DNA of 48,646 nt. Source: Nautiliaceae bacterium. GTDB lineage: Bacteria > Campylobacterota > Campylobacteria > Campylobacterales > Nautiliaceae. The notes below the pieces were generated by a model. It did no database searches, was not told where the DNA came from, and was given only the letters and a program-made list of their open reading frames with translations. The position numbers and the translations under genes are program-made. Position 1 is the first letter of the stretch; each line of letters begins with the position of its first letter. The stretch spans positions 1 through 48,646 of the forward strand of contig JBDONT010000010.1 of assembly GCA_039831155.1 (NCBI GenBank), written 5' to 3'. This document shows, piece after piece, positions 4,034 to 48,646 of this stretch.

Positions 4034-6037
<2,004 letters not shown>

Positions 6038-6086
6038 TTTTTAAATGTTATAAAATTTTGTTATAATAAATAAAAAAAGGCTTTAA

Positions 6087-6295
6087 ATACAAGCTGTATT
6101 TGATATGCGAGTAGAAGAGTTTGATGATAAGTTTTTTGAAATGTTAAAAACTAAATTTAAAAACGCTAAAATCAAAATTATTATTAAAGAAGATGAAACC
6201 GAGTATCTATTAAAAAATAAAGCGAATAGAGAATTTTTAATGAAATCTATAGCTGGACTTAAAAAAATGAAATTGTGAAGTTAAAAGATATTTGA
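6087..6295 (+). pseudogene. YefM-like antitoxin, degenerate
   Basis: Manual translation: (I)QAVFDMRVEEFDDKFFEMLKTKFKNAKIKIIIKEDETEYLLKNKANREFLMKSI, with a DETEYLL..ANR motif. ATA sits at the expected start. A probable frameshift lies in the A run at 6261-6267, and the alternative frame ends at TGA 6293-6295 overlapping the toxin ATG. Confidence 0.75.
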
Positions 6296-6546
6296 TGATA
6301 GTTTTTACCAAATCGTGTTTTGAAGATTATTTTTAGTGGGAACAGAATGATAAAGGAATCTTTAAAAAGATAAACGCTTTGATTAAAGAATGTCTTAGAA
6401 ATCCTTTTTCGGGACGTGGGAAACCCGAACCTTTAAAAAACGAGCTTTCAGGATTTTGGTCAAGGCGTATAGATAGTGAACATAGATTGGTTTATAAATA
6501 CGAAAATGAAAAATTATATATAATTTCTGTGAGATACTATGTATAA
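6295..6546 (+). pseudogene. yoeB: Txe/YoeB-family toxin with premature stop
   Basis: MIVFTKSCFEDYF*WEQNDK...PFSGRGKPEPLKNELSGFWSRRIDSEHRLVY...RYYV. In-frame TAG at 6334-6336. Confidence 0.92.
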
Positions 6547-6558
6547 AAAAGGATAAAA

Positions 6559-6852
6559 ATGCCGACTAAAACGGTTGTGGAAAATGATGTAGAGATAATA
6601 ATGCCTAAACTTTATAAAGTGATGCTTTTGAATGATGATTATACGACGTTTGATTTCGTAATAGAGATTTTAAAAAAAGTTTTTCATAAAAGCGAGGAGG
6701 AGGCTATTAATCTCACTTTAAAAGTGGATAGAGAAGGGAGTGCGATTGTCGGGGTTTACCCTTACGAAATAGCTCAAATGAAAGTGGAAAGAACCCACGC
6801 ACTTGCACGTGAAGCCGGATATCCATTAAGAGCAGTATTAGAGGAGGAATAA
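6559..6852 (+). CDS. clpS: ATP-dependent Clp protease adaptor
   Basis: YKVMLLNDDYTTFDFV motif, directly upstream of clpA. Confidence 0.96.
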   Translation: MPTKTVVENDVEIIMPKLYKVMLLNDDYTTFDFVIEILKKVFHKSEEEAINLTLKVDREGSAIVGVYPYEIAQMKVERTHALAREAGYPLRAVLEEE

Positions 6853-9015
6853 GTGGAGATAACTAGGAATTTAAGGAATATTTTAAACGAAATTGTAAAT
6901 GAAGCGAAAAGAAGACAAAACGAATATATTACCGTCGACCACGCTTTTTATGTGTTGTTAAAAGATGAAAATATTAAAAAAATTTTAGAAGATGTCGGGG
7001 TTGATGTGGATTATATAAGAATGGGGCTTGATTATTATCTTGACAGATATATAGAAAAAGTGCCCGTTAAAGTAACTCCGACAGAAACTCTTGCTTTTCA
7101 TAAAGCAACGGAGAGAATGATAAACCATATTCAAGGAATTCGTAAAAACGTAGCAGATGAGATAGACTTTTTTATAGCTCTTTTAGAAGATGAGACGAGT
7201 TATACTCATCAGCTTTTAAGAGAGTTTGGAATTCACAGGGTAGAAATAGTTGAGTATATTACGGAAAGTGAAGTTGAAACGAAAGAGAATAAAAAAGAGT
7301 CTCCTTTAAAAGAATTTACAACCGAGCTTACCTCTATTGCAAAAAAATTTGACGACGTAATAGGCAGGGAAAAAGAGATAGAAAGAGTTATGCATGTTCT
7401 TGCAAGACGTAAAAAAAACAATCCTATCTTAGTAGGAGAACCGGGAGTTGGGAAAACGGCTATTGTTGAAGGACTTGCGAAAAAAATAGCTTTAAATGAA
7501 GTTCCAAAAGCCTTAAAAAACAAAAAAATATACTCTTTGGATTTGGGAGCTTTAATAGCCGGTACAAAATACAGAGGCGAATTTGAAAAAAGAATGAAAC
7601 TTATTTTGGATGAACTTAAAAAAGAAAAAGAGCCTATTTTGTTTATTGATGAAATTCATATGATTGTAGGAGCCGGGGTTGCCGGGAATGGGAGTATGGA
7701 TGTGGCGAATCTGCTAAAACCAGCACTTGCCAGGGGTGAGATTAGATGTATAGGTGCTACGACTTATGAAGAGTATAAAAACCATTTTGAAAAAGATAGA
7801 GCCTTAAACAGAAGATTTCAAAAAATAGATATAAAAGAACCAAGCATTGAAGATACTGTTAAGATTTTAAAAGGATTAAAATCTAAATACGAAGAGTTTC
7901 ACGGTGTGAGATATTCCGAAGAGGCTATTAAAAATGCGGCTGTTTTGGCTAAAAAGTATCTTAGAGAGAAATTTTTACCCGATAGTGCGATTGATTTGAT
8001 AGATGAAGCCGGAGCTAAATTTAAACTAAAAGGTAAAAAGCTGATAACAAAAAGCGATATAGAAGGAGTTGTTGCAAAACTTGCGAATATTCCTAAAGAA
8101 AGCACTTCGAATAACGAAATAGAAAAATTAAGACATCTTGAAAATAATTTAAAAGCTAGGGTTTTTGGACAGGATGAAGCTATAAAAGAGCTTGTAAAAG
8201 TGATAAAAAGAAAAAAAGCAGGACTAACTCGTGAAGATAAGCCTATAGGAAGTTTTCTTTTTGTAGGACCTACGGGTGTGGGTAAAACTGAAATTGCAAA
8301 ACAGCTTGCAGATATATTGGGGATTAACTTTTTAAGATTCGATATGAGCGAATATCAGGAAAAACATTCTGTCGCAAAACTTATAGGCTCGCCTCCCGGG
8401 TATATAGGATATGAAAAAGGAGGGCTTTTAACGGAAGCCATAAGAAAAAATCCTCATACCGTGCTTTTACTTGATGAAATAGAAAAAGCACATCCGGATA
8501 TCGTTCAAATTTTACTTCAGGTTATGGATAATGCGACGTTGACCGATAATGACGGAAGAATAGCTGATTTTAGAAATGTAGTATTGATTATGACAAGTAA
8601 TTTAGGAGTAGGAGAAGGTAATAATCCGGGATTTTTGCAAGAATTTAGCGAATTTAAAGAAGAGGCGATTGATAGGTTTTTCGCACCGGAATTTTTAAAT
8701 AGGCTTGATGCGATTGTGAGGTTTAAACCTTTAAGTCGCGAGAGTGTAATGCTTGTAGTTGATAAGTTTATAAACGAATTGCAGGATAAGTTGAATTCAA
8801 AAAAAGTTAAATTAACGCTAACTAAAAGAGCGAAAGAGGCTTTGGCTAAAAAAGGGTATTCTCCAAAACTAGGAGCCCGTCCACTTGCTAGAGTGATCGA
8901 AGAGAATATTGTTGAGCCTTTGAGTGATGAAATACTTTTTGGGGATTTGAAAGGGGGAGGAGAAGTGAGAGTCGATTATGTAAAAGATAAATTCAATCTA
9001 AAAGTAAAAAAATGA
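6853..9015 (+). CDS. clpA: Clp protease ATP-binding subunit ClpA
   Basis: Two AAA+ modules (GEPGVGKT, GPTGVGKT), no ClpB middle coiled coil, clpS-clpA-aat context. Confidence 0.93.
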   Translation: MEITRNLRNILNEIVNEAKRRQNEYITVDHAFYVLLKDENIKKILEDVGVDVDYIRMGLDYYLDRYIEKVPVKVTPTETLAFHKATERMINHIQGIRKNVADEIDFFIALLEDETSYTHQLLREFGIHRVEIVEYITESEVETKENKKESPLKEFTTELTSIAKKFDDVIGREKEIERVMHVLARRKKNNPILVGEPGVGKTAIVEGLAKKIALNEVPKALKNKKIYSLDLGALIAGTKYRGEFEKRMKLILDELKKEKEPILFIDEIHMIVGAGVAGNGSMDVANLLKPALARGEIRCIGATTYEEYKNHFEKDRALNRRFQKIDIKEPSIEDTVKILKGLKSKYEEFHGVRYSEEAIKNAAVLAKKYLREKFLPDSAIDLIDEAGAKFKLKGKKLITKSDIEGVVAKLANIPKESTSNNEIEKLRHLENNLKARVFGQDEAIKELVKVIKRKKAGLTREDKPIGSFLFVGPTGVGKTEIAKQLADILGINFLRFDMSEYQEKHSVAKLIGSPPGYIGYEKGGLLTEAIRKNPHTVLLLDEIEKAHPDIVQILLQVMDNATLTDNDGRIADFRNVVLIMTSNLGVGEGNNPGFLQEFSEFKEEAIDRFFAPEFLNRLDAIVRFKPLSRESVMLVVDKFINELQDKLNSKKVKLTLTKRAKEALAKKGYSPKLGARPLARVIEENIVEPLSDEILFGDLKGGGEVRVDYVKDKFNLKVKK

Positions 9016-34907: not shown

Positions 34908-36743
34908 TTAGTTTTTAGTTTTAAGATACCTTTTGTTTTCTATTTTTTCTATATCTCCCATTTGGTCTAAATAATCCAGATATGCTACAATATATTTTCT
35001 GCTCATTGGCATATGTTCTTTAAATTTTTTGATATCGATATAACCTTCTTTTTCTATAATTTCCCTCATTTTTTTAAGGGCTATGTTTATGTTTTTATCG
35101 GTTACGAAAAGGTTATGGGCAAGTCTTATTACTTTTTTGGATGTTGTGAGTTTTTTCATAGCGTTATCGCCCACTTTTCTGTCGATATTTAATTTTTCGT
35201 AGATGTTATAAGGAGCATCGGGGGTGAGTCCTGAATTATCAAGCAGCTGGTAGAGTCTGTGTTCTACCGATTTTGTGATATCCACTTCTCCTAAATCTTT
35301 TCTTTTATATATGTTGTCTTCTTTTATTAAATAACCCTCTTTTACAAGCTCATCAAGTACGCTTTTTATAAGTTCCGTACTTGCCCATTTTAGTCTTAGT
35401 TTAAGTGATGCCGGGGAGAGGAATGCCAATCTGTTTTTTTCGTAGGTTTCTTTTATCACTTTTTCAATCTCTTCTTTTACTTCAATTGAGAAGATATTAT
35501 AGTTTTCCTCATCTATGAATACGTTATCAAGCTGTTTTGCAATTTCCAAAGCTTCTTTTGGAGAGAGGTTAAATCTTTGATAGCTTTGAAGTAGCCCAAA
35601 TCCCCTTTTGTGATTTTGAATGAGTATTTCAAATGACGTTTTAAAATCTTTTTTGTTTAGGGCTTTAAGTAAAGAGAGTTTTTTCTTTTTCTTAATAGGG
35701 TCGCTTATAGGGTTTAATACTTCTCCACCTCCGACAACGCGACCGTTATGAAGAATTACAAAAGGGTCTTCAAATACTAAAAAGGCCTTTTCTTCAAGTT
35801 TTATAGTTGCGTATCCTTTTTTTTCTTCCGGGTTAAACATTAATAATTTCCCTGGAATTCTTTTTGCACCACTTATAAATAAAACTTCCATATTGTGAAA
35901 AAGCTCTTTTCCTTCTACAGGCTTTACGAATACGTCGATTAATTTAAATCCTCTTAAATATCCTTTGGTTGAGAGGAGATACCCTTTTTTGAATTCTTTA
36001 TGGTTGATGTTCAAATTTATAGCAACCCTTTGGTGAGTATAAGCTTCTTCTACGTCTTTTCCGTGGACTTGGAGGTTTTTAACGGTTGTTAGAGTTTTTG
36101 TTTCGTTGATATAAATTTTGTCTTTAAGTTTTACTTTTCCACTTAGAACCGTTCCCGTAACAACCGTACCGATACCTTTTAGTGAAAACACTCTGTCGAT
36201 ATAGTATCTGAAAAATTTAGAGTGGGTTATGTTTCTTGGAGGCAGGTTAAACAGGTAGTCTTTCAGTTTTTCTATACTTTCTTTATCGTAAATAGAAGTT
36301 TCGAAAATTTCAAGCAAATGCAGGTTTTTATATTTTGCAATTAAATCTCTGATTTCGTTTTTTCTTTTTTCGATTGTATCTTTGTCGGCCAAGTCGCATT
36401 TTGTAAGGGCCACTATTATGTTTTTGACTTTTAGAATGTTCAGTACTTCCAAATGTTCTATCGTCTGCGGCATTACGCCCTCATTTGCGTCTATTGCAAA
36501 AAGAGAAGCGTCAAATCCGAATGCTCCGCTAATCATATTTTTAACAAGTTTTTCGTGACCCGGGACGTCAATGAATGCGATGTTTACGTCGCCTCTTTTC
36601 ATATTCGTAAAGCTTAAATCAATGGTAATTCCTTTTTCTTTTTCTTCTTTCAGTTCGTCCCCGTTATAGCCTGTCATGGCTTCAATAAGGGATGTTTTAC
36701 CGTGGTCTACGTGACCGGCTGTACCTATAATAATATTACGCAT
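34908..36743 (-). CDS. selB: Selenocysteine-specific elongation factor
   Basis: GTAGHVDHGKT, GITIDL, DVPGHE, C-terminal winged helix with SRKY..AYLDYLD. Confidence 0.97.
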   Translation of the reverse strand: MRNIIIGTAGHVDHGKTSLIEAMTGYNGDELKEEKEKGITIDLSFTNMKRGDVNIAFIDVPGHEKLVKNMISGAFGFDASLFAIDANEGVMPQTIEHLEVLNILKVKNIIVALTKCDLADKDTIEKRKNEIRDLIAKYKNLHLLEIFETSIYDKESIEKLKDYLFNLPPRNITHSKFFRYYIDRVFSLKGIGTVVTGTVLSGKVKLKDKIYINETKTLTTVKNLQVHGKDVEEAYTHQRVAINLNINHKEFKKGYLLSTKGYLRGFKLIDVFVKPVEGKELFHNMEVLFISGAKRIPGKLLMFNPEEKKGYATIKLEEKAFLVFEDPFVILHNGRVVGGGEVLNPISDPIKKKKKLSLLKALNKKDFKTSFEILIQNHKRGFGLLQSYQRFNLSPKEALEIAKQLDNVFIDEENYNIFSIEVKEEIEKVIKETYEKNRLAFLSPASLKLRLKWASTELIKSVLDELVKEGYLIKEDNIYKRKDLGEVDITKSVEHRLYQLLDNSGLTPDAPYNIYEKLNIDRKVGDNAMKKLTTSKKVIRLAHNLFVTDKNINIALKKMREIIEKEGYIDIKKFKEHMPMSRKYIVAYLDYLDQMGDIEKIENKRYLKTKN

Positions 36744-38082
36744 TTTTAATCCTGCATGAGATTATCGAATTAATAATTTTTGCAAGTTTTTCTATTTCGT
36801 CATCTAAAATACTTCTCATATCAAGTACGAATTTTTCGTTTTCTATTCTACCTATTACTAAATTTTTTCTCATAATTTCTTCCCACGTTTTCGCATTACC
36901 CTCAACTTCTACTATAATAGTGGGAATTTTTTGATTAGGCATAGTACCTCCACCTATATAAGTATAAGATTCTTTTATATGAGCTTTAAAGTTAAAAGTA
37001 AGAGAGAGTAATTTTTTAGCTTTTTTTCGTAAATGGTCCTGAGTTTGAAATATGGATTTTAAAGTCGGAATTTTATCGTATTCTTCTTTAATATAGGCAA
37101 GTGCGGTGGCTTCTATTAAAGATAGCGTAATTTTATCGACTCTAAACATTCTTAGAATTTGGTTTTTTTTAAGTTGGTCGATTAATTCTTTTTTTCCTAA
37201 AATTATTCCGGCTTGTACACTACCGAATAATTTATCTCCGCTAAAACTTATAAGAGCGGGATTTAATTTTATAATTTCCGAAATAGGAGGTTCGTTTGCA
37301 CTTAAATTATAAGGAAGTTCTGGAATATAAGCACTTCCTATATCGTAATAGTCTAAAATATTATATTTGGAGGCTAAATTTATTATATCTTTTAAAGAAG
37401 CTTCTTCACTGAAACCTTCTATGGAGTAATTTGATTTGTGAACTTTCATAAGTATCGAAGTGTTTTGTGTAATTGCTTCTTCATAGTCTTTAATTTTAGT
37501 TTTATTCGTTGTACCTACTTCTATTAATTTAGCTCCGCTTGCTTTCATAACTTCCGGTATTCTGAAGCTCCCCCCGATTTCTACAAGTTCTCCTCTTGAA
37601 ACTATTACTTCTTTATCTTTTGCAAACGTGTTTAAAATTAAAAATACGGCTGCCGCATTATTATTTACTATTAACGCACTTTCCGTTCCGAAAAGAGCAC
37701 TTAAAAGTTTTTCGCTATGGTGGTATCTGTCTCCTCGCTTCCCTTTTTCTATATCATATTCTAAATTGCAGTAACGAGTGGAACGTTTTTTTGCATAGTC
37801 GAATATTTCAGGATTTATTAAACTTCTGCCTAAATTAGTATGAACTGTAATTCCGGTTGCGTTTATTACGTTTACTATTGAAGGTAAAAGAAGTTCGTTC
37901 GCTTTAAGCTCTATTTCTTTAATAATCGCTTCTTCGTTTATCTTTTTTATTTTTTTATTTTTTATATCTTCTCTAAGTTTGTTTAAGGTTGTATTGATTA
38001 TAGGTTTTAGGATTTTTTTTGGAATGTGAGATAGCTTTTGTTCGATTTTATCCACTTTGGGAATTTTTCTAAAAAGATTCAT
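36736..38082 (-). CDS. selA: L-seryl-tRNA(Sec) selenium transferase
   Basis: INATG..HTNLGRS, VNNNAAA, SRGELVEIGGSFRIP, FSGDKL. Confidence 0.98.
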   Translation of the reverse strand: MNLFRKIPKVDKIEQKLSHIPKKILKPIINTTLNKLREDIKNKKIKKINEEAIIKEIELKANELLLPSIVNVINATGITVHTNLGRSLINPEIFDYAKKRSTRYCNLEYDIEKGKRGDRYHHSEKLLSALFGTESALIVNNNAAAVFLILNTFAKDKEVIVSRGELVEIGGSFRIPEVMKASGAKLIEVGTTNKTKIKDYEEAITQNTSILMKVHKSNYSIEGFSEEASLKDIINLASKYNILDYYDIGSAYIPELPYNLSANEPPISEIIKLNPALISFSGDKLFGSVQAGIILGKKELIDQLKKNQILRMFRVDKITLSLIEATALAYIKEEYDKIPTLKSIFQTQDHLRKKAKKLLSLTFNFKAHIKESYTYIGGGTMPNQKIPTIIVEVEGNAKTWEEIMRKNLVIGRIENEKFVLDMRSILDDEIEKLAKIINSIISCRIKNA

Positions 38083-39683: not shown

Positions 39684-39782
39684 GGAGGGGATGTGACCCT
39701 GGTGGGCACCCCGGGCTTCAAACCCGGTGGGGCGGCAGGTGTCTGTCTGCCCGGAAGGTTCGATTCCTTCCCCCTTCCGCCA
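39684..39782 (+). tRNA. selC: tRNA-Sec (anticodon UCA)
   Basis: 99 nt. Acceptor GGAGGGG/CCCTTCC plus GCCA, anticodon arm CCGGG-CT TCA AA-CCCGG, long variable arm, T arm GAAGG-TTCGATT-CCTTC, near selAB. Confidence 0.97.
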
Positions 39783-42080: not shown

Positions 42081-43052
42081 TTACATTTCTTTTAATATAG
42101 CTTCTAAATCTTTTTTAAATTCATTTTTTAATTCTTCAGATTCTAATATTATTATATTAGGTATCCATTTTTTTATAAAAGGCAGAATTTCCATAGGTTG
42201 GGTGTAGGTCAGTTCAAAAATAACTCCTTCGTCGTTTTCTTCGATAAATTTTTGGGATGAGAGGAATTTTTTCATATCTTTTCTAAAATAATGAGCCACT
42301 TCTTTTTTTGCAAGCAATCTTGCTTTTTTAGGCTCCACTCCGTATAGAGTTAGTGAATTTTGTATATTTTGCAGGTATTTTTCATATTTTTCGACTGAAT
42401 TTTTTTGAAATTTTTTTTCTTTAAGTTTACCGTTTTCTTTGATGAAAACAGGCTTGACGTCTTTTATAAAAGATATTCTTAAAAATCTGAATTTTTCGTT
42501 TTCATCTTCACACGCAAGATACCAGTTGTTATCGATAAATACCAATTTTATAGCTTTTACTGTCAGCGTTTCTTCATCTTTGATTATTTTCAGGTATTTG
42601 TGTTCTTTTACGGCATTTTTTATTTTGGAAAAAAGTTTTTCTTTTGTTTTCAAATCCTCCATAATAGAGTTTTTGAAAATAAAGATGTTTTTTTCTGATT
42701 TAATGAGTTTTTTGGCTTTTTTTCTTGTTTCATCTTCAAGGTTTTTTAAATATTCCGGGTTTGTTTGGGATAAATCTTGTAAAATAAAACTTATATCATC
42801 GCTTTTTGTCAGAATTTCGAATATTATATCGGCGGTATCGTTTATTTTGTAGCATGTTTTTTTGTTTTTGAAATCTTTTTGTATGACATCTTCGCCAAAA
42901 TATTCTGCAAGTCCGTCGAGAATATCCTTAACTCTTCTTTCTACCTGGTCGAGATTTAAAATCTCTTTGATTTCCAAAGGGGTAAAACACTGTTTTGCAG
43001 ACATTAGCAGTTTCAAAACATCAAAAGCCTCTTTTGCTTTTTTATGAATCAT
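42081..43052 (-). CDS. wHTH-WYL-WCX transcriptional regulator
   Basis: N-terminal HTH, KLVFIDNNWYLAC...FRFLRISFI WYL domain, C-terminal IKKWIPNIIILES. Confidence 0.92.
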   Translation of the reverse strand: MIHKKAKEAFDVLKLLMSAKQCFTPLEIKEILNLDQVERRVKDILDGLAEYFGEDVIQKDFKNKKTCYKINDTADIIFEILTKSDDISFILQDLSQTNPEYLKNLEDETRKKAKKLIKSEKNIFIFKNSIMEDLKTKEKLFSKIKNAVKEHKYLKIIKDEETLTVKAIKLVFIDNNWYLACEDENEKFRFLRISFIKDVKPVFIKENGKLKEKKFQKNSVEKYEKYLQNIQNSLTLYGVEPKKARLLAKKEVAHYFRKDMKKFLSSQKFIEENDEGVIFELTYTQPMEILPFIKKWIPNIIILESEELKNEFKKDLEAILKEM

Positions 43053-43133: not shown

Positions 43134-43661
43134 ATGGTCATGGGAAAAATTACTGAATTATTTGTAAAAGAACATTTAGAAAAAAACGGTATCAAAAGTT
43201 TATGGCATTTTACAGATCTCTCAAATTGGGAATCAATTAAAAAATATGGGATTCAGTCATTATTTAGAATAATCAAAGATGATATTAAGGTTTCTCGTTT
43301 CGGTGCAAATGCTTTATCTCATGATTTGGATTATTATAAAGGATTAGACAGATATGTTCATTTGAGTTTTACAGATGACCATCCTATGTATCATATTGCA
43401 AAAAAGGAAAAAAGAATAATAAATCCGATTTGGATAGAAATTGATATAAATGTTTTATTTGATAAAAAAGTATTGGTTTGTAAAGGTGTCGCAAACAAAA
43501 CAAACAGTGTTTTATTAAATTTAGCCGGTGTGTTGAACTTTGATTTTGATAAAATGTTTCATGATGATTTTGAAATAAGAAAAGAAGCAAGAAAAGCGGA
43601 AATACTTATATACGATTGTATTGAGACTAAATATATAAAAGGAGCTTATTATGGCAAGTAG
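43134..43661 (+). CDS. darT: DarT-family (DUF4433) DNA ADP-ribosyltransferase toxin, likely DarT1
   Basis: LWHFTDLSNWESIKKYGI, YVHLSF...HPMY, catalytic-type AEIL..D.I, overlaps the NADAR-type gene. Confidence 0.85.
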   Translation: MVMGKITELFVKEHLEKNGIKSLWHFTDLSNWESIKKYGIQSLFRIIKDDIKVSRFGANALSHDLDYYKGLDRYVHLSFTDDHPMYHIAKKEKRIINPIWIEIDINVLFDKKVLVCKGVANKTNSVLLNLAGVLNFDFDKMFHDDFEIRKEARKAEILIYDCIETKYIKGAYYGK

Positions 43662-44325
43662 ACCGGCATTTATAGCAACTAAAAATGATAAACTTGTAGA
43701 AATTATAAATGTGGAATTTGAATATTTTACCGGATTTGCCGCTGTTCAAAAAGCAAAAACGAGAGATTCTTTTCATAATGCCATCAGAGAACATGGATAT
43801 GAAAAAATACTTGAAGTTTCTACTAATTCCGATAACGAATTAGGCTGGCAATTAAGCGCTTTTAATTTAATGACGGATTATGATGGAGAGAAAATTCCGC
43901 TTGAATGTGCTTTTCAGGGCAGTAAGGTATTTGAATACGGAGGGCCATATACGGATATATTCAAAAAAACAAACATAGAAGCCAAAAAAGACAAAAGACT
44001 CAAAAATTCCGGTAAAGTTATTAAATTTAGATATGAAGGAAACGAGTGGGAAACCGAACCTCAGACCGCATTTTACGACTGGTTGTATATTTCAACGGTA
44101 TATAAAAATTACCCGCACTTGATAGAAGAACTTGCAAATTATGAAGTTTTTACCGATATAGCCTTTAATCCGAAAAAATCAGTCAACTGCCAGGCAAAGA
44201 GCTGTGCTATTTTGGTATCATTGTATCATATAGGCAAACTTGAAGAGGCTTTGTCTTCAAAAGATAATTTTTTGAGAATTGTTTATGGATATAAAGAAAA
44301 ACCAAAACAGGGGAGTTTGTTTTAA
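43651..44325 (+). CDS. DarT1-associated NADAR-type antitoxin (ADP-ribosylhydrolase)
   Basis: MASRP, GFA..QK, LEVST.S, LSAFNL, ECAFQGSKVFE.GGPY.D, FYDWLY, FTDIAFNP..S.NCQA. Confidence 0.82.
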   Translation: MASRPAFIATKNDKLVEIINVEFEYFTGFAAVQKAKTRDSFHNAIREHGYEKILEVSTNSDNELGWQLSAFNLMTDYDGEKIPLECAFQGSKVFEYGGPYTDIFKKTNIEAKKDKRLKNSGKVIKFRYEGNEWETEPQTAFYDWLYISTVYKNYPHLIEELANYEVFTDIAFNPKKSVNCQAKSCAILVSLYHIGKLEEALSSKDNFLRIVYGYKEKPKQGSLF

Positions 44326-44400: not shown

Positions 44401-44739
44401 ATGGGATATTGGTTTGGAGAATTTAGCAATTGCACTTCTTGGAGAAAAACACCTGTTAAGATTGGCAATACCTGGTATACTCCAAGCGGAGAGAGGATAA
44501 GAAATCCTAAAGCTTATTTTACCAAAGTTAGAAGAAACGGCAGATATTGGGAAAATAATACGGGCTGGAAAAAATCCAATAAATTCTGTGAGCGTGAATA
44601 TGATGATTTTGATTATAATTTTGAAAACTATGATAATGAAGATTATGATTACAATGATAATTCATACGAAGAAGAACGCTGGGATTTGCGTGATATTTAC
44701 GGGGATTTTTATGATGATGAGTTTGATGATTATGAGTAA
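44401..44739 (+). CDS. Hypothetical protein with basic/Trp-rich N-half and D/E/Y-rich C-half
   Basis: AAGGAGGT RBS, its own promoter, 112 aa. Confidence 0.75.
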   Translation: MGYWFGEFSNCTSWRKTPVKIGNTWYTPSGERIRNPKAYFTKVRRNGRYWENNTGWKKSNKFCEREYDDFDYNFENYDNEDYDYNDNSYEEERWDLRDIYGDFYDDEFDDYE

Positions 44740-44809: not shown

Positions 44810-44953
44810 AGCCTAGATATTGATGTCTGTGCTGTAATCGGCACAGGTCTATAAAAGTTAACACTTGTCTTCGCAATTTTAAAAGTGAAAGTAAAAAGTG
44901 AAATAGAGTAAGTAAATCTATCATTGCTTCGAATCCTAATGAATATCTAGGCT
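44810..44953 (+). ncRNA. Retron msr-msd non-coding RNA
   Basis: Perfect 12-bp terminal inverted repeats AGCCTAGATATT (44810-21) / AATATCTAGGCT (44942-53). Candidate branching G at 44822 after TT. Hairpin GTCTGTGCTG-taat-CGGCACAGGT. Ends 18 nt before the first copy of the RT GTG. Confidence 0.85.
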
Positions 44954-45014
44954 GTTTGAAAAAGGGAATAAGTGGAAAAGTTATTTAAATATATAAATCT
45001 TTATATTATAAAAA

Positions 45015-45114
45015 NNNNNNNNNNNNNNNNNNNNNNNNNNNNNNNNNNNNNNNNNNNNNNNNNNNNNNNNNNNNNNNNNNNNNNNNNNNNNNNNNNNNNN
45101 NNNNNNNNNNNNNN
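45015..45114. other. Assembly gap (100 N) flanked by a 127-bp exact duplication
   Basis: 44888-45014 is identical to 45115-45241. Confidence 0.95.
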
Positions 45115-45198
45115 AAAGTAAAAAGTGAAATAGAGTAAGTAAATCTATCATTGCTTCGAATCCTAATGAATATCTAGGCTGTTTGAAAAAGGGAATAA

Positions 45199-47064
45199 GT
45201 GGAAAAGTTATTTAAATATATAAATCTTTATATTATAAAAAATGCAAAAAATAAAAAGATAAAGCCTCTAACTAATATAAATAAATTGTATTATTTCGCA
45301 TATTTTTGCGATGATAAATTTATAACATTTGAAATTCCTAAATATAACGATAAAAAAAGAACAATATATACCACTAAATATAAAACTCATAAAATTATCT
45401 TAGAAGCTATAAATGAATATTTATATGAGAAAGTGAAACTTCCAAGATATGTTCACGGATATGTGAAAAAGAAAAATGTAGTTACAAACGCCAAAGTTCA
45501 CGTAGGTAAAAAATATGTTTTTAAAGTTGATATTAAAGATTTTTTTCCTTCAATTCACAAAGGTAAAATAATTTGGGCATTAAAAAATTATCTTAATTTA
45601 GATGAAAAACAGGCTTTTTTAATTGCTTCATTGGCTACTGTTAAAATTGATGGTAAAGAATTTTTACCTCAAGGCTTTCCAACTTCCCCAGTGTTATCTA
45701 ATCTGGTTTTAAAAAGAGTTGATAGAAGATTAATTGGGATAGCAAAAAAATATCATATAAAATATACAAGATATGCAGATGATATTACTTTTTCAAGTGA
45801 TAAAAATATTTTTGATGAAAATTTTATAAATGAGGTAGAAAAAATTTTAAATAAAGACGGTTTTAAACTGAATTATGAGAAAATAAAATTATTAAAAAAG
45901 GGCTACAGACAAACGGTAACCGGTTTGGTTGTAAATGAAAAACTCAATGTAAAAAGAGAATATGTTAAATTATTAAGAACACTTTTATTTTATCTTGAAA
46001 AAAATATTGAACAATATGGAAAAGGGGAAGGAATAAAAAAAGCTCAGATATTATTTGAAGAAAAAAGTAACTCAAAAAAAGATTTATTAAAAGTAATTGA
46101 AGGAAAACTTGCATATTTAAAGAATATAAAAGGAGAAGATGATTCAACATATAAAAAATTAAAAAGTAGATATGATAAGATAACCGGAAAAAATAAAACT
46201 AATTGCATTAATCATAATCCAAAAAAAGTTGTAGAAATTCTAAGTAAATTTTCAAATGATGAAGATTTAAAATTTGTTCTTCACAAATGGAGAGGAAGTG
46301 CTAATTTTACTTATGATGAATTTATAAAAAAAGTGAAAAATAAATGGAAAGAATATGAAAAAGAATTACATAAATTAAATTATAAATTAAATGCTAAAAT
46401 TTATAATTTTTTACTACATCCAAATCCTAAATGGGGAAATAATAAAGAAATAGAATATGGATGGTCATCACATAATTTAATAGAATGTTTTAGAAATATT
46501 CAAGACCCTTTTGATTGTGAATTAAATGATGGAAATGGTAGAAAATTTGAAGATATTATCAAGTTATTTAAAGAAGAAATTAGATTAAATGGAGAAAAAC
46601 TACTCAAATTAATTGATAATATAATCAAAGAAAATAATTTAAAATCAGAAAAAAAAGATTTAAAAGAAAGAGAAAAGCTCTACGAAATGAAAGAAACTTA
46701 TATAGATACTCAATGGTTTAAGATAGGTTTAGAAAGATTATTTCAAGGAATAAAAGAACATGGCAAAACTAATAAAATTGAATTACAATTTGAAGAGTTT
46801 GATGATTTTTATGAATTATATATTATTAATATAGATTCCAATGCAAATAAAAATCATAAAGAATTGATAGGAGGAGATTTTTCTTTTATTAAAGAAGCTT
46901 TTTGTTCAGTTGTAGATTGGAGTATTATTTGGAAATATAATAATCAAATTTGTAAGTTTGATGTTTTTAAAAATGAAGAAAAATTTCAAAATAATTATGA
47001 TTTTAGAGGATTTACACATAAAATAAAAATATATAAAAGAGTTATGAATGATTTTATTAGTTGA
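45199..47064 (+). CDS. Retron-type reverse transcriptase with a roughly 280-aa C-terminal histidine-kinase/GHKL-like extension
   Basis: NAKVH (region X), DIKDFFPSI, LPQGFPTSPVLSN, YADD, QTVTGLVV (region Y). The C-terminal YIDTQWF..GLERLFQGIKEHG / LYIINID / GGDF..IK / GFTHKIKI resembles HATPase_c boxes (inference). Confidence 0.9.
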   Translation: MEKLFKYINLYIIKNAKNKKIKPLTNINKLYYFAYFCDDKFITFEIPKYNDKKRTIYTTKYKTHKIILEAINEYLYEKVKLPRYVHGYVKKKNVVTNAKVHVGKKYVFKVDIKDFFPSIHKGKIIWALKNYLNLDEKQAFLIASLATVKIDGKEFLPQGFPTSPVLSNLVLKRVDRRLIGIAKKYHIKYTRYADDITFSSDKNIFDENFINEVEKILNKDGFKLNYEKIKLLKKGYRQTVTGLVVNEKLNVKREYVKLLRTLLFYLEKNIEQYGKGEGIKKAQILFEEKSNSKKDLLKVIEGKLAYLKNIKGEDDSTYKKLKSRYDKITGKNKTNCINHNPKKVVEILSKFSNDEDLKFVLHKWRGSANFTYDEFIKKVKNKWKEYEKELHKLNYKLNAKIYNFLLHPNPKWGNNKEIEYGWSSHNLIECFRNIQDPFDCELNDGNGRKFEDIIKLFKEEIRLNGEKLLKLIDNIIKENNLKSEKKDLKEREKLYEMKETYIDTQWFKIGLERLFQGIKEHGKTNKIELQFEEFDDFYELYIINIDSNANKNHKELIGGDFSFIKEAFCSVVDWSIIWKYNNQICKFDVFKNEEKFQNNYDFRGFTHKIKIYKRVMNDFIS

Positions 47065-47605
47065 AGATACTCAAGTAAGATTAAATGGAATCAACTGTTT
47101 GAAAAATATCGAAATTGTTGATTATTTTGACAAATTAAAATTTAAAAATTATGAAATTATTTGTGTTCATAAATCTATAAAAAATTTTAATGAAAAAATT
47201 TTAATGGAATTAGATAAAAAAGTTGTGATTTTTAGTGGAGGAATTGAGGGATATTATTTTAAAAATAAAAATTTTTTAGAAATTGATGTTGATATTTTTT
47301 ATCAAAATTTTTGTGTTTTTATTGAGAGTAAAGAATTATTTAGTTTAATATATGGAAAAAATTATAAATTGAAAACACTTTTAGAATTTTACGATAGAAT
47401 TTCTTTTTTTGAGAAAAATAATGAAGAGTATTTGTCTTTTAAATTTGTAAAAGAAACTCATTATGAAAAAATTATAAATGTTTTCAATTTAGAAGAAATT
47501 AAGTTAGATTTAATTATTGAAAAACAAGAACTTATAAAATATAAAAAATACATTTATCACTTAATACAAAAGATGGCAAATGAAAACTTTATTAGTAATT
47601 CCTAA
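47048..47605 (+). CDS. Receiver-like (pseudo-REC) protein
   Basis: MILLVED beta1, IICVH at the usual phosphoacceptor strand, VVIFSGG beta4. Overlaps the RT 3' end by 17 nt. Confidence 0.65.
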   Translation: MILLVEDTQVRLNGINCLKNIEIVDYFDKLKFKNYEIICVHKSIKNFNEKILMELDKKVVIFSGGIEGYYFKNKNFLEIDVDIFYQNFCVFIESKELFSLIYGKNYKLKTLLEFYDRISFFEKNNEEYLSFKFVKETHYEKIINVFNLEEIKLDLIIEKQELIKYKKYIYHLIQKMANENFISNS

Positions 47606-48646
47606 TAATAAAAAAGATTTTTATAATACAGAAAAATTTAATGACACATATTATATCAGTTTAAAATTTGAAGATAACTTTGAAAAAGAACTCCAAAAGA
47701 GAATTAAAGAATTAGATAAGAAAGAATTTGATGTTATTTTTATAAAAGAAAGTTTAGGTCCTACTTGTTTAGATTTTACAGGTATAAAACTTGCTTGGTA
47801 TATTAGATTGCTTTCTAATAAACATAAATTTAAGCCTATTATAATACTTTCTAATTTTGATGCAGTTTTAATAAAAAAAATTACTTTTTTAGGTGATATA
47901 TTATTTACTCAGGGAGTTTATTTAATAGATGAATTTATTGAGGGGAGATTTACTCCTTTAAAAGATTATAAAAACTTTATAAATTTAGTAAAAATTCCGT
48001 TACCACTCGAATATAATTCAAATCACGATTTATCTAATGATTGGGCATTATATGTTTGGGCTAAAAATTTTGATGTAAAAATGGATAAATTATTCAAAAA
48101 GTTTGAAGAAAAATTTTATTTTCAATATTTAAAAGCAAAGTATGAACTTGAAGTTAAAAAACAAAAAGTTGAATTGAAAAATCAAAATTTAAAGATATTA
48201 GCAATAGACGATAAAAAAGAGTGGGGAGAAATTTATAAAAAAGTTGAAATAGAATTTTATAATATTCAAGATTGTAAATTTAATGAAAATATAATAGAAG
48301 ATTATGATATGATAATTTTAGATTTAAGATTAAGAAAAAAGGATTATAAAAAAGAACAAAAAATTCAAAATTATTATAGTTATAAATTAGTTGAGAGGTT
48401 TTTACAAACTAATCCCGCTGTGTGGATAGTAATATTTAGCTCCTCAAAGAATGCAGAAATAATTCAAGAATTTAAAAAATTTCCAAATGTAATTGACTAT
48501 ATTAAAAAAAATCATCCAGAAGATAAAGAAAATAATATTTTAGATTCTATAAATAAATTCAATAAAGCATTTGCTTGGGTAAAAGAAAATAAATATTTAA
48601 AAGAAATTTGGCAAATAAAAAGAGAAATAGAAGATATTTTAGAACA
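47580..48646 (+). CDS. Tandem receiver-domain protein, partial (runs off the window, absent from the ORF track)
   Basis: Manual translation is open for 355 codons from ATG 47580. A degenerate REC (DVIFIK...DFTGIKLAWYIR...PIIILS) is followed by the linker NHDLSNDWAL and an intact REC (KILAIDD, DMIILDLRL, IVIFSSS, DYIKK). Confidence 0.85.
   Translation, partial: MKTLLVIPNNKKDFYNTEKFNDTYYISLKFEDNFEKELQKRIKELDKKEFDVIFIKESLGPTCLDFTGIKLAWYIRLLSNKHKFKPIIILSNFDAVLIKKITFLGDILFTQGVYLIDEFIEGRFTPLKDYKNFINLVKIPLPLEYNSNHDLSNDWALYVWAKNFDVKMDKLFKKFEEKFYFQYLKAKYELEVKKQKVELKNQNLKILAIDDKKEWGEIYKKVEIEFYNIQDCKFNENIIEDYDMIILDLRLRKKDYKKEQKIQNYYSYKLVERFLQTNPAVWIVIFSSSKNAEIIQEFKKFPNVIDYIKKNHPEDKENNILDSINKFNKAFAWVKENKYLKEIWQIKREIEDILE

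Follow-up and report, generated by a model that had tools for sequence, protein, structure and literature searches.

A retron reverse transcriptase of a Nautiliaceae bacterium with a C-terminal module of the HisKin-conflict family and adjoining receiver genes

By sequence comparison, the C-terminal 290 residues of a retron reverse transcriptase (RT) from a Nautiliaceae bacterium can be assigned to the HisKin-conflict family (Pfam PF22561) and represent a very divergent histidine kinase module. The RT is encoded on contig JBDONT010000010.1 of GenBank assembly GCA_039831155.1. The window analysed here is this whole contig (48,646 nt), one of the 43 contigs of a 1.53-Mb genome. The open reading frame (ORF) at 45199..47064 (+) codes for a protein of 621 residues, referred to as RT-HisKin, and its segment 46189..47064 codes for residues 331-621 and the stop codon. 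An msr/msd-like RNA is located upstream, and two genes for receiver-related proteins (ORF2 and ORF3) follow downstream. We incline, with moderate confidence, to the view that RT-HisKin, the msr/msd RNA, ORF2, and an iREC-REC(-HEPN) protein constitute a retron-coupled two-component system with an active relay. RT-HisKin and the receiver proteins probably form an anti-phage signalling switch, as far as can be judged from their sequences.

The features of RT-HisKin are:
45199..46188 (+), retron reverse transcriptase domain, residues 1-330 (Pfam RVT_1, PADLOC retron models, motifs)
46189..46608 (+), predicted His-bearing helical subdomain of the kinase module, residues 331-470 (models, invariant H362)
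46579..47046 (+), predicted catalytic and ATP-binding (CA, Bergerat-fold) subdomain of the kinase module, residues 461-616 (VIA-align, Foldseek, residue mapping)
46870-46881 (+), GGDF, residues 558-561, degenerate kinase box
residues 604-607 (+), GFTH, degenerate kinase box

Family membership and predicted fold of the C-terminal extension

Residues 338-612 match PF22561, which carries the Pfam title "Histidine Kinase domain observed in conflict contexts", with an E-value of 1.4e-36 and 127.1 bits (cut-off 27). The match spans positions 2-303 of the 303 profile positions, i.e., the full profile. A search with residues 331-621 against 1.84 billion representative proteins returned 239 relatives at E<=0.001 (126 at E<=1e-10), and the domain extends to the C-terminus in nearly all of the best 150 of these 239. 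PF22561 is present in each of the 73 best relatives that were scanned. Their N-terminal modules are ankyrin repeats in 42 cases, RVT_1 in 12, and DUF6804 in 4, with nothing recognisable in the remaining 15. When 153 representative clusters were labelled with a local phmmer search, 75 proved to be ankyrin-fused and 29 RT-fused, with 49 others. RT-HisKin and its two closest relatives share a long branch (length 1.04, support 100) in a family tree computed with FastTree; because the tree is midpoint-rooted, no claim is made as to which fusion came first. The family is rare in the phylum: PF22561 was found over the cut-off in 5 of 401 sampled genomes, this one included, and in none of 14 control genomes.

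An AlphaFold2 model of residues 331-621, based on an alignment with 132 rows, was obtained with a predicted local distance difference test (pLDDT) of 93.6 and a predicted template modelling score (pTM) of 0.91. In this model, the kinase module consists of a helical bundle, which bears the invariant residue H362, and a Bergerat-fold ATP-binding domain. Foldseek reported 30 matches to the PDB at E<=0.001, and the rows shown were all histidine kinases (CpxA at 8e-5, YycG, DesK, HK853, AdeS, CusS) or PDK2. A comparison with 48,161 chains by VIA-align yielded 50 with Z>=8, and every one of the 50 listed is either a CA domain of the histidine kinase type or one of the related PDK/BCKDK kinases. ZraS is the best match (Z 11.0, root-mean-square deviation [rmsd] 2.9 A over 129 residues), and model residues 131-286 align with histidine kinase CA domains at Z 8.2-11.0. 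The extension is thus predicted to contain an ATP-binding fold of the kinase type within the GHKL ATPases (the group that also includes Hsp90 and MutL). The His-bearing subdomain was also modelled alone (pLDDT 90.0). For this model, VIA-align found nothing more specific than generic helical bundles (best Z 6.5), CheA P1 reached Z 5.8, which is within the noise level quoted for helical proteins, and Foldseek found no match below E 1.7.

A divergent histidine kinase with the alpha/beta sandwich of GHKL ATPases had already been proposed in an initial annotation, made without database searches, and both the family match and the predicted fold agree with that proposal. The sequence strings on which it was founded are all in place and in the order given: HNPKKV (residues 339-344), ILSKF (347-351), and LKFVLHKW (357-364) around the His; WF (506), GL (510), LFQGIKEHG (514-522), IELQF (527-531), and LYIINIDS (540-547) in the region of the N and G1 boxes; and finally GGDF, IK (564), DWSI (573-576), and GFTHKIKI (604-611).

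The His within LKFVLHKW is H362 (46282-46284). It is found in 132 of 132 aligned relatives with full coverage and is the sole invariant column of the alignment, so the annotation's expectation that it would be conserved was borne out. Its surroundings have diverged, from K-Y-T-T-H-x-W-D in the family to K-F-V-L-H-K-W-R in RT-HisKin. An alignment to canonical kinases computed with hhalign, which is of low confidence and served only as a residue map, is colinear and places H362 at the H-box His and D503 at the acidic residue which opens the N-box helix. On the same low-confidence map and from the helix register, G517 (D503+14; 46747-46749) corresponds to the Mg-binding N-box Asn, as had been proposed initially. 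N544 (46828-46830) is tentatively assigned to the G1 Asp position from the in/out alternation of the strand. The residues which usually contact ATP and Mg would accordingly appear to be replaced by G517 and N544. Other residues in the region of the nucleotide pocket are well conserved, namely G559 (128 of 132), S547 (126), D503 (124), and D560 (108).

The retron and its receiver partners

The elements which surround the RT-HisKin gene are:
44810..44953 (+), retron-type noncoding RNA (ncRNA; msr/msd region), bounded by inverted repeats (repeats, RNA fold, conserved hairpin)
45015..45114 (no strand), gap of 100 N introduced by scaffolding, between two exact copies of a 127-bp sequence
47048..47605 (+), ORF2, 185 residues, overlaps the RT-HisKin stop codon; receiver-like (BLASTP, pattern)
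47580..48646 (+), ORF3, 355 residues, cut by the contig end; iREC and canonical REC (Pfam, partner alignment)
47613-47927 (+), iREC of ORF3, residues 12-116 (Pfam PF22563, E 2.5e-13)
48192-48569 (+), canonical REC of ORF3, residues ~205-330 (D210, D248, S286-288, K309)

The N-terminal part of RT-HisKin is a retron RT by several measures. Pfam RVT_1 is matched at residues 46-233 (E 1.7e-21), and the retron RT models of PADLOC score between 1e-60 and 1e-87, the best being RT-Protease_XI (1.8e-87, residues 27-346), followed by RT-TIR_XII and RT-Toprim_I-C. The motifs NAKVH (residue 97), QGFPTSP (158), and VTG (240) and the catalytic site YADD (192) are present; NAxxH and VTG are given as defining retron RTs in a passage of PMC13712802. 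The hallmark of Type XI, a fused C-terminal trypsin-like protease, has no counterpart here, as no protease family was found in the Pfam scan.

Upstream of the RT, two 15-nt inverted repeats (a1, 44810-44824; a2, 44939-44953) with 93% complementarity enclose 114 nt. The RNA has a predicted folding energy of -40.5 kcal/mol (z -4.3), which was equalled by none of 200 shuffled sequences. A 5' hairpin is shared with the RT-HisKin locus of a Helicobacter sp. (L015), including a change from G-C to A-U in the stem; this comparison involves three sequences, two of which are nearly identical. No Rfam family matches the ncRNA. A scan with a relaxed DNA pattern for the msr hairpin retrieved only the Helicobacter locus and one metagenome contig, and a stricter first pattern retrieved nothing. 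Taken together, the sequence features place the RT-HisKin fusion in a retron with an msr/msd-like RNA upstream.

The gap at 45015-45114 is bordered on both sides by the same 127 bp (44888-45014 = 45115-45241). A metagenome contig which is 99% identical to the element (L047) runs from a2 into the RT start uninterrupted, with neither gap nor duplication. Because the sequence is continuous in L047, the gap is a scaffolding artefact, a join of two overlapping contig ends which leaves the region of the kinase extension untouched. The duplication doubles the 3' part of the retron ncRNA together with the RT start, and gene callers may therefore report an additional RT start at 44972 which is spurious. 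In two studies, DNA contigs contain the whole stretch with 22 differences, among them an insertion of 5 or 22 nt at 45140 in the msd region and an extra GTG at 45198, as in L047. The A-rich insertion, at ~45140 (corresponding to ~44913 in the left copy and to 5080-5130 in L047), repeats a ATAGAGTAAG unit and is seen in other samples as a length polymorphism of the presumed msd. As the insertion varies in length, otherwise near-identical elements would differ in the stem or loop of their multicopy single-stranded DNA (msDNA).

The close association with receiver genes is not restricted to this genome. In all four other genomic loci examined, the HisKin-conflict gene is directly followed by a gene which codes for iREC and Response_reg domains, and the iREC-REC partner adjoins the kinase gene in L047 as well. 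In L015, one ORF2-like gene intervenes between the two, so that the partner is divided between ORF2 and ORF3 in the same way as in the RT-HisKin locus.

ORF2 has no Pfam or PADLOC match. By BLASTP, it is related to ORF2 of L015 (28% identity, 8e-8) and to the N-terminal ~200 residues (residues ~50-200) of the partner proteins from ankyrin-type loci (1e-6 to 4e-6). From the pattern LLVED...VHKS...FSGG, we tentatively infer a receiver-like domain in which a His replaces the acceptor Asp. Its structural neighbours in the Atlas are Response_reg clusters with template modelling scores of 0.43-0.48, which we take as a lead only.

ORF3 combines an iREC, a receiver-like domain that is inactive by Pfam definition, with a canonical REC. 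Residues D210, D248, and K309 of its REC are invariant columns across 122 partner proteins. In a separate alignment of these 122 partners, all of them have the acceptor Asp and the Lys, and 106-107 have the acidic pair. The initial annotation had considered two possibilities, an atypical active kinase and a pseudokinase scaffold which holds the receivers inactive. The receivers do not all look inactive, as the protein has, beside the iREC, a REC in which the acidic pocket, the acceptor Asp, and the Lys are complete.

No other contig of the genome continues ORF3. In L047, ORF3 is complete (522 residues) and has the C-terminal HEPN RNase motif RNGFVH, while the homologues P0277 and P0278 (76% and 74% identical) end with RNNFIH. 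The motif R-x4-H occurs within the last 130 residues of 117 of the 122 partners, in 107 of them as RN; the five partners which are devoid of it are 376-514 residues long. When 12 partners were scanned with Pfam, one matched HEPN_Apea (3.6e-7, 31 bits, cut-off 24.4). The partner architecture can be described from sequence as (REC-like)-iREC-REC-HEPN, with HEPN assigned from the motif and the one HMM match.

The linker between iREC and REC of ORF3 carries the motif S-N-H-D-x-x-N-x-W-x-x-x-x-W (residues 147-160; 48018-48059). Residues H149, N153, W155, and W160 of this linker are invariant in the 122 partners.

A proposed phosphorelay and its alternatives

For the active relay that we favour, the following sequence of events can be envisaged. 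By analogy to other retrons, the complex of RT and msDNA would be the sensor of phage infection. A change in this complex might toggle the fused kinase between a phosphorylating state and one that does not phosphorylate or that dephosphorylates. The target would be the acceptor Asp of the REC, D248 in ORF3. The phosphorylation state of the REC could then gate the C-terminal HEPN RNase, which would halt the growth of the infected cell, the outcome being abortive infection. In the sister architecture, ankyrin repeats would take the place of the RT as sensor.

A number of observations weigh against this reading. To begin with, RT-HisKin has the lowest PF22561 score among the members scanned (127 bits). 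Its two closest relatives (62-63% identical) score 131 and 129 bits, and the other 71 score 134-308. It also departs from the family consensus at near-invariant positions (R464N, F500T, C572V, E577I). Similarity to canonical kinases is not detectable at the HMM level: none of 26 family members matches HATPase_c or HisKA even at E<=10, and RT-HisKin itself has no such match at E<=0.1 in the Pfam scan. A single-sequence search of the PDB gave no match. The profile of the first family alignment was uninformative against the PDB because ankyrin columns dominated it. A profile from an RT-less, ankyrin-poor alignment retrieved nothing relevant from the PDB sequences and no kinase, its best match being a Holliday-junction resolvase (E 0.038). 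In local mode, hhalign assigned a probability of only 3.5% to the alignment with 30 canonical kinases from this and related genomes.

Other such points concern the residues and the domains themselves. Both models place H362 after a helix of 3-4 residues and before a loop. The residue is predicted to lie in the helical bundle but off any long helix of the dimerisation and histidine phosphotransfer (DHp) type. Of the His helix proposed initially, the invariant His stands, but not a canonical DHp hairpin. In the alignment of homologues, H362 is conserved, but position 517, the presumed N-box position, is variable: of 132 relatives, 54 have E, 26 have Q, and 11 have G, with Asn only in the two closest relatives and Gly in RT-HisKin and L047. 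At position 544, where the adenine-binding Asp would be expected, Q is found in 75 and H in 53 of 132, and N in RT-HisKin and two close relatives. The HEPN end of ORF3 falls outside the window. Contigs from RNA libraries (two metatranscriptome libraries from one sample) match exactly only 45115-46019 and 47543-47779, which is not proof of transcription. These contigs do not cover 46059-47474, the kinase region, an observation that carries no conclusion. Finally, no experiment on any family member was found in the literature searched, although an earlier description may exist elsewhere.

The main alternative is that the module is a pseudokinase scaffold or a phosphatase, which would have kept the fold and the His but would not hydrolyse ATP, and which would bind and perhaps dephosphorylate the receivers. 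In that case, the phosphoryl group of the REC would come from a different donor, acetyl phosphate for instance, or the signal would be passed on by conformation alone. Such a role would fit with G517 and N544 at the positions of the Mg-binding Asn and the G1 Asp, both of which are non-canonical throughout the family, and with the missing HATPase_c signal. It would also fit with the degeneration of two of the three receiver-like domains, ORF2 with its His at the acceptor position and the iREC. However, a His that is retained by all relatives together with the Asp and Lys of the REC in all partners is hard to explain if no phosphoryl chemistry takes place. G559, D560, S547, and D503 have also been conserved in the nucleotide-pocket region, and the E or Q at position 517 in 80 of 132 relatives might still bind Mg. 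In our judgement, the invariance shared by the His and by the Asp and Lys of the REC outweighs the degenerate nucleotide-binding positions, and we give more weight to the active relay and consider a pseudokinase or phosphatase less likely, though it should be kept in mind.

A GHKL-type ATPase switch that operates without phosphorylation of the His seems improbable to us. In such a switch, the module would change its conformation upon ATP binding, like MORC, Hsp90, and MutL, and the role of H362 would be structural or catalytic in some other way. The fold is indeed common to all GHKL ATPases, H362 is predicted in a loop and off a DHp helix, and the longest structural alignments are those with the Ser kinases PDK2 (188 residues, Z 8.2) and BCKDK (179 residues, Z 9.2). 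Even so, CA domains of histidine kinases make up all of the best structural matches, with none from MORC, Hsp90, MutL, or GyrB, and the REC that is the obligatory neighbour has a complete phospho-acceptor site.

Two further ideas, that the extension could be a nuclease effector of the Toprim type known from type I-C retrons or that its motifs occur together by chance, can be considered refuted: the RT-Toprim_I-C models of PADLOC do align out to residue 541, but the extension alone and four RT-less relatives match no PADLOC model (0 of 5), there is no Pfam Toprim match, the predicted fold is that of a kinase CA domain, and the PF22561 E-value excludes a chance set.

Genomic setting and comparison with known systems

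The retron is part of a low-GC defence island. The genome has a GC content of 0.32 and the module one of 0.21. The island starts after a selenocysteine tRNA gene (tRNA-SeC, 39684-39778), which has selB and selA (34908-38079) as neighbours, and the GC content drops there from 0.30 to 0.21. Because the low-GC island begins after tRNA-SeC, the position of this tRNA suggests an integration site.

Within the island, a further feature was annotated:
42081..43052 (-), WYL/WCX-domain protein (Pfam WCX 5.6e-6, WYL 1.9e-5; PADLOC WYL 3.6e-20)

This protein is a likely regulator of the island. A WYL/WCX gene (5919-6869, -) is also found directly after the iREC-REC partner in the HisKin-conflict locus L013, which is devoid of an RT, and for this reason WYL may be associated with the chassis of kinase and REC and not with the RT. 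Immediately upstream of the retron, DarT (PF14487, 8e-14) and the DarT1-associated NADAR antitoxin (PF22397, 8e-84) are encoded at 43134-44325, and their order is the same in L047. An ORF of 112 residues (44401-44739) is located between the NADAR gene and the ncRNA. Its C-terminal half is very acidic and rich in Asp, Glu, and Tyr. It has no match in Pfam, NCBIfam, or PADLOC but is conserved in L047 (4582-4920). In two ankyrin-type loci (L012, 5217-6459, -; L014, 3600-4863, -), the partner is followed by a toxin pair consisting of a helix-turn-helix protein and a nucleotidyltransferase of the AbiEii family.

Parts of the system have already been catalogued, namely the domain family in Pfam and its co-occurrence with an RT lineage in a survey table. 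Table 2 of this survey (mSystems 2026, PMC13712802) has clusters of HisKin-conflict and of iREC, with 12 loci each, as enriched around 'TXI_C2like', a protease-less RT lineage which resembles type XI and beside which WYL is enriched, too. The survey's passages on these clusters discuss no mechanism for HisKin-conflict, a term which among the papers searched occurs in this survey only. A term search in the text of Mestre et al. (2020, PMC7736814), which distinguishes 13 retron types, returned neither 'kinase' nor 'receiver', and the kinase domain, ORF2, and the partner are all without a model in PADLOC v2. Term searches, which included the eLife 2020/2021 papers, returned no published description of a system of retron, kinase, and receiver, although an earlier one may exist.

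In the retron defence systems known so far, the coupling between the RT-msDNA complex and an effector is direct or takes the form of a fusion. If our reading is correct, the element described here would for the first time connect retron sensing to two-component phospho-signalling, which would be a new signalling principle for retrons. It would also be a tractable case for studying how an extremely divergent kinase handles nucleotides, apparently without the canonical N-box Asn and G1 Asp. As the version of the kinase-REC-HEPN chassis with an ankyrin sensor is the commoner one (75 against 29 RT-fused among the 153 clusters), results would extend to a wider family of uncharacterised defence systems.

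Among canonical sensor kinases, the predicted CA domain superposes on those of ZraS (9jfj), CpxA (4biu), and AdeS (7cch) at Z 10.6-11.0 and an rmsd of 2.7-3.3 A. On the low-confidence residue map, the His, N, G1, and G2 elements follow one another as in these kinases, and the partner is a REC in either case. RT-HisKin differs from these kinases in that it lacks HMM-level similarity and, in the models, a DHp hairpin, appears to have the N-box Asn and the G1 Asp replaced, and would receive its input from a fused reverse transcriptase rather than from a membrane or PAS sensor. The alignments with PDK2 and BCKDK are the longest and extend over some of the helical bundle at the N-terminus, but the rmsd is 4.4-6.5 A and sequence similarity is absent. 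PDK2 and BCKDK phosphorylate Ser on another protein, and neither is known to have a REC partner.

With the retrons of types XI (RT-protease), XII (RT-TIR), and I-C (RT-Toprim), RT-HisKin shares the organisation as a single polypeptide in which a C-terminal domain is attached to the RT. It differs from these in that the fused domain is a predicted signalling kinase and that the presumed HEPN effector is part of another polypeptide, the REC protein. It also has an msr/msd-like RNA, unlike type XI, which according to Mestre et al. (2020, PMC7736814) is without a recognisable ncRNA. We see about an even chance that the element represents a distinct, uncatalogued type of retron. Such a type would neither carry nor neutralise a toxin directly. 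Its RT-msDNA complex would instead drive a fused, non-canonical kinase with atypical nucleotide-binding residues, from which a phosphorelay would lead to the REC-HEPN RNase, and the RT would be exchangeable with ankyrin sensors.

The closest correspondence is to the systems built from PF22561 and PF22563. RT-HisKin has in common with them the full-length HMM match, the invariant His, the position of the kinase C-terminal to a variable sensor, and the iREC-REC gene downstream. It is set apart from other PF22561 members in that it is, together with its two closest relatives, the most divergent of those scanned, in its Gly at the presumed N-box position, and in the splitting of its partner into ORF2 and ORF3.

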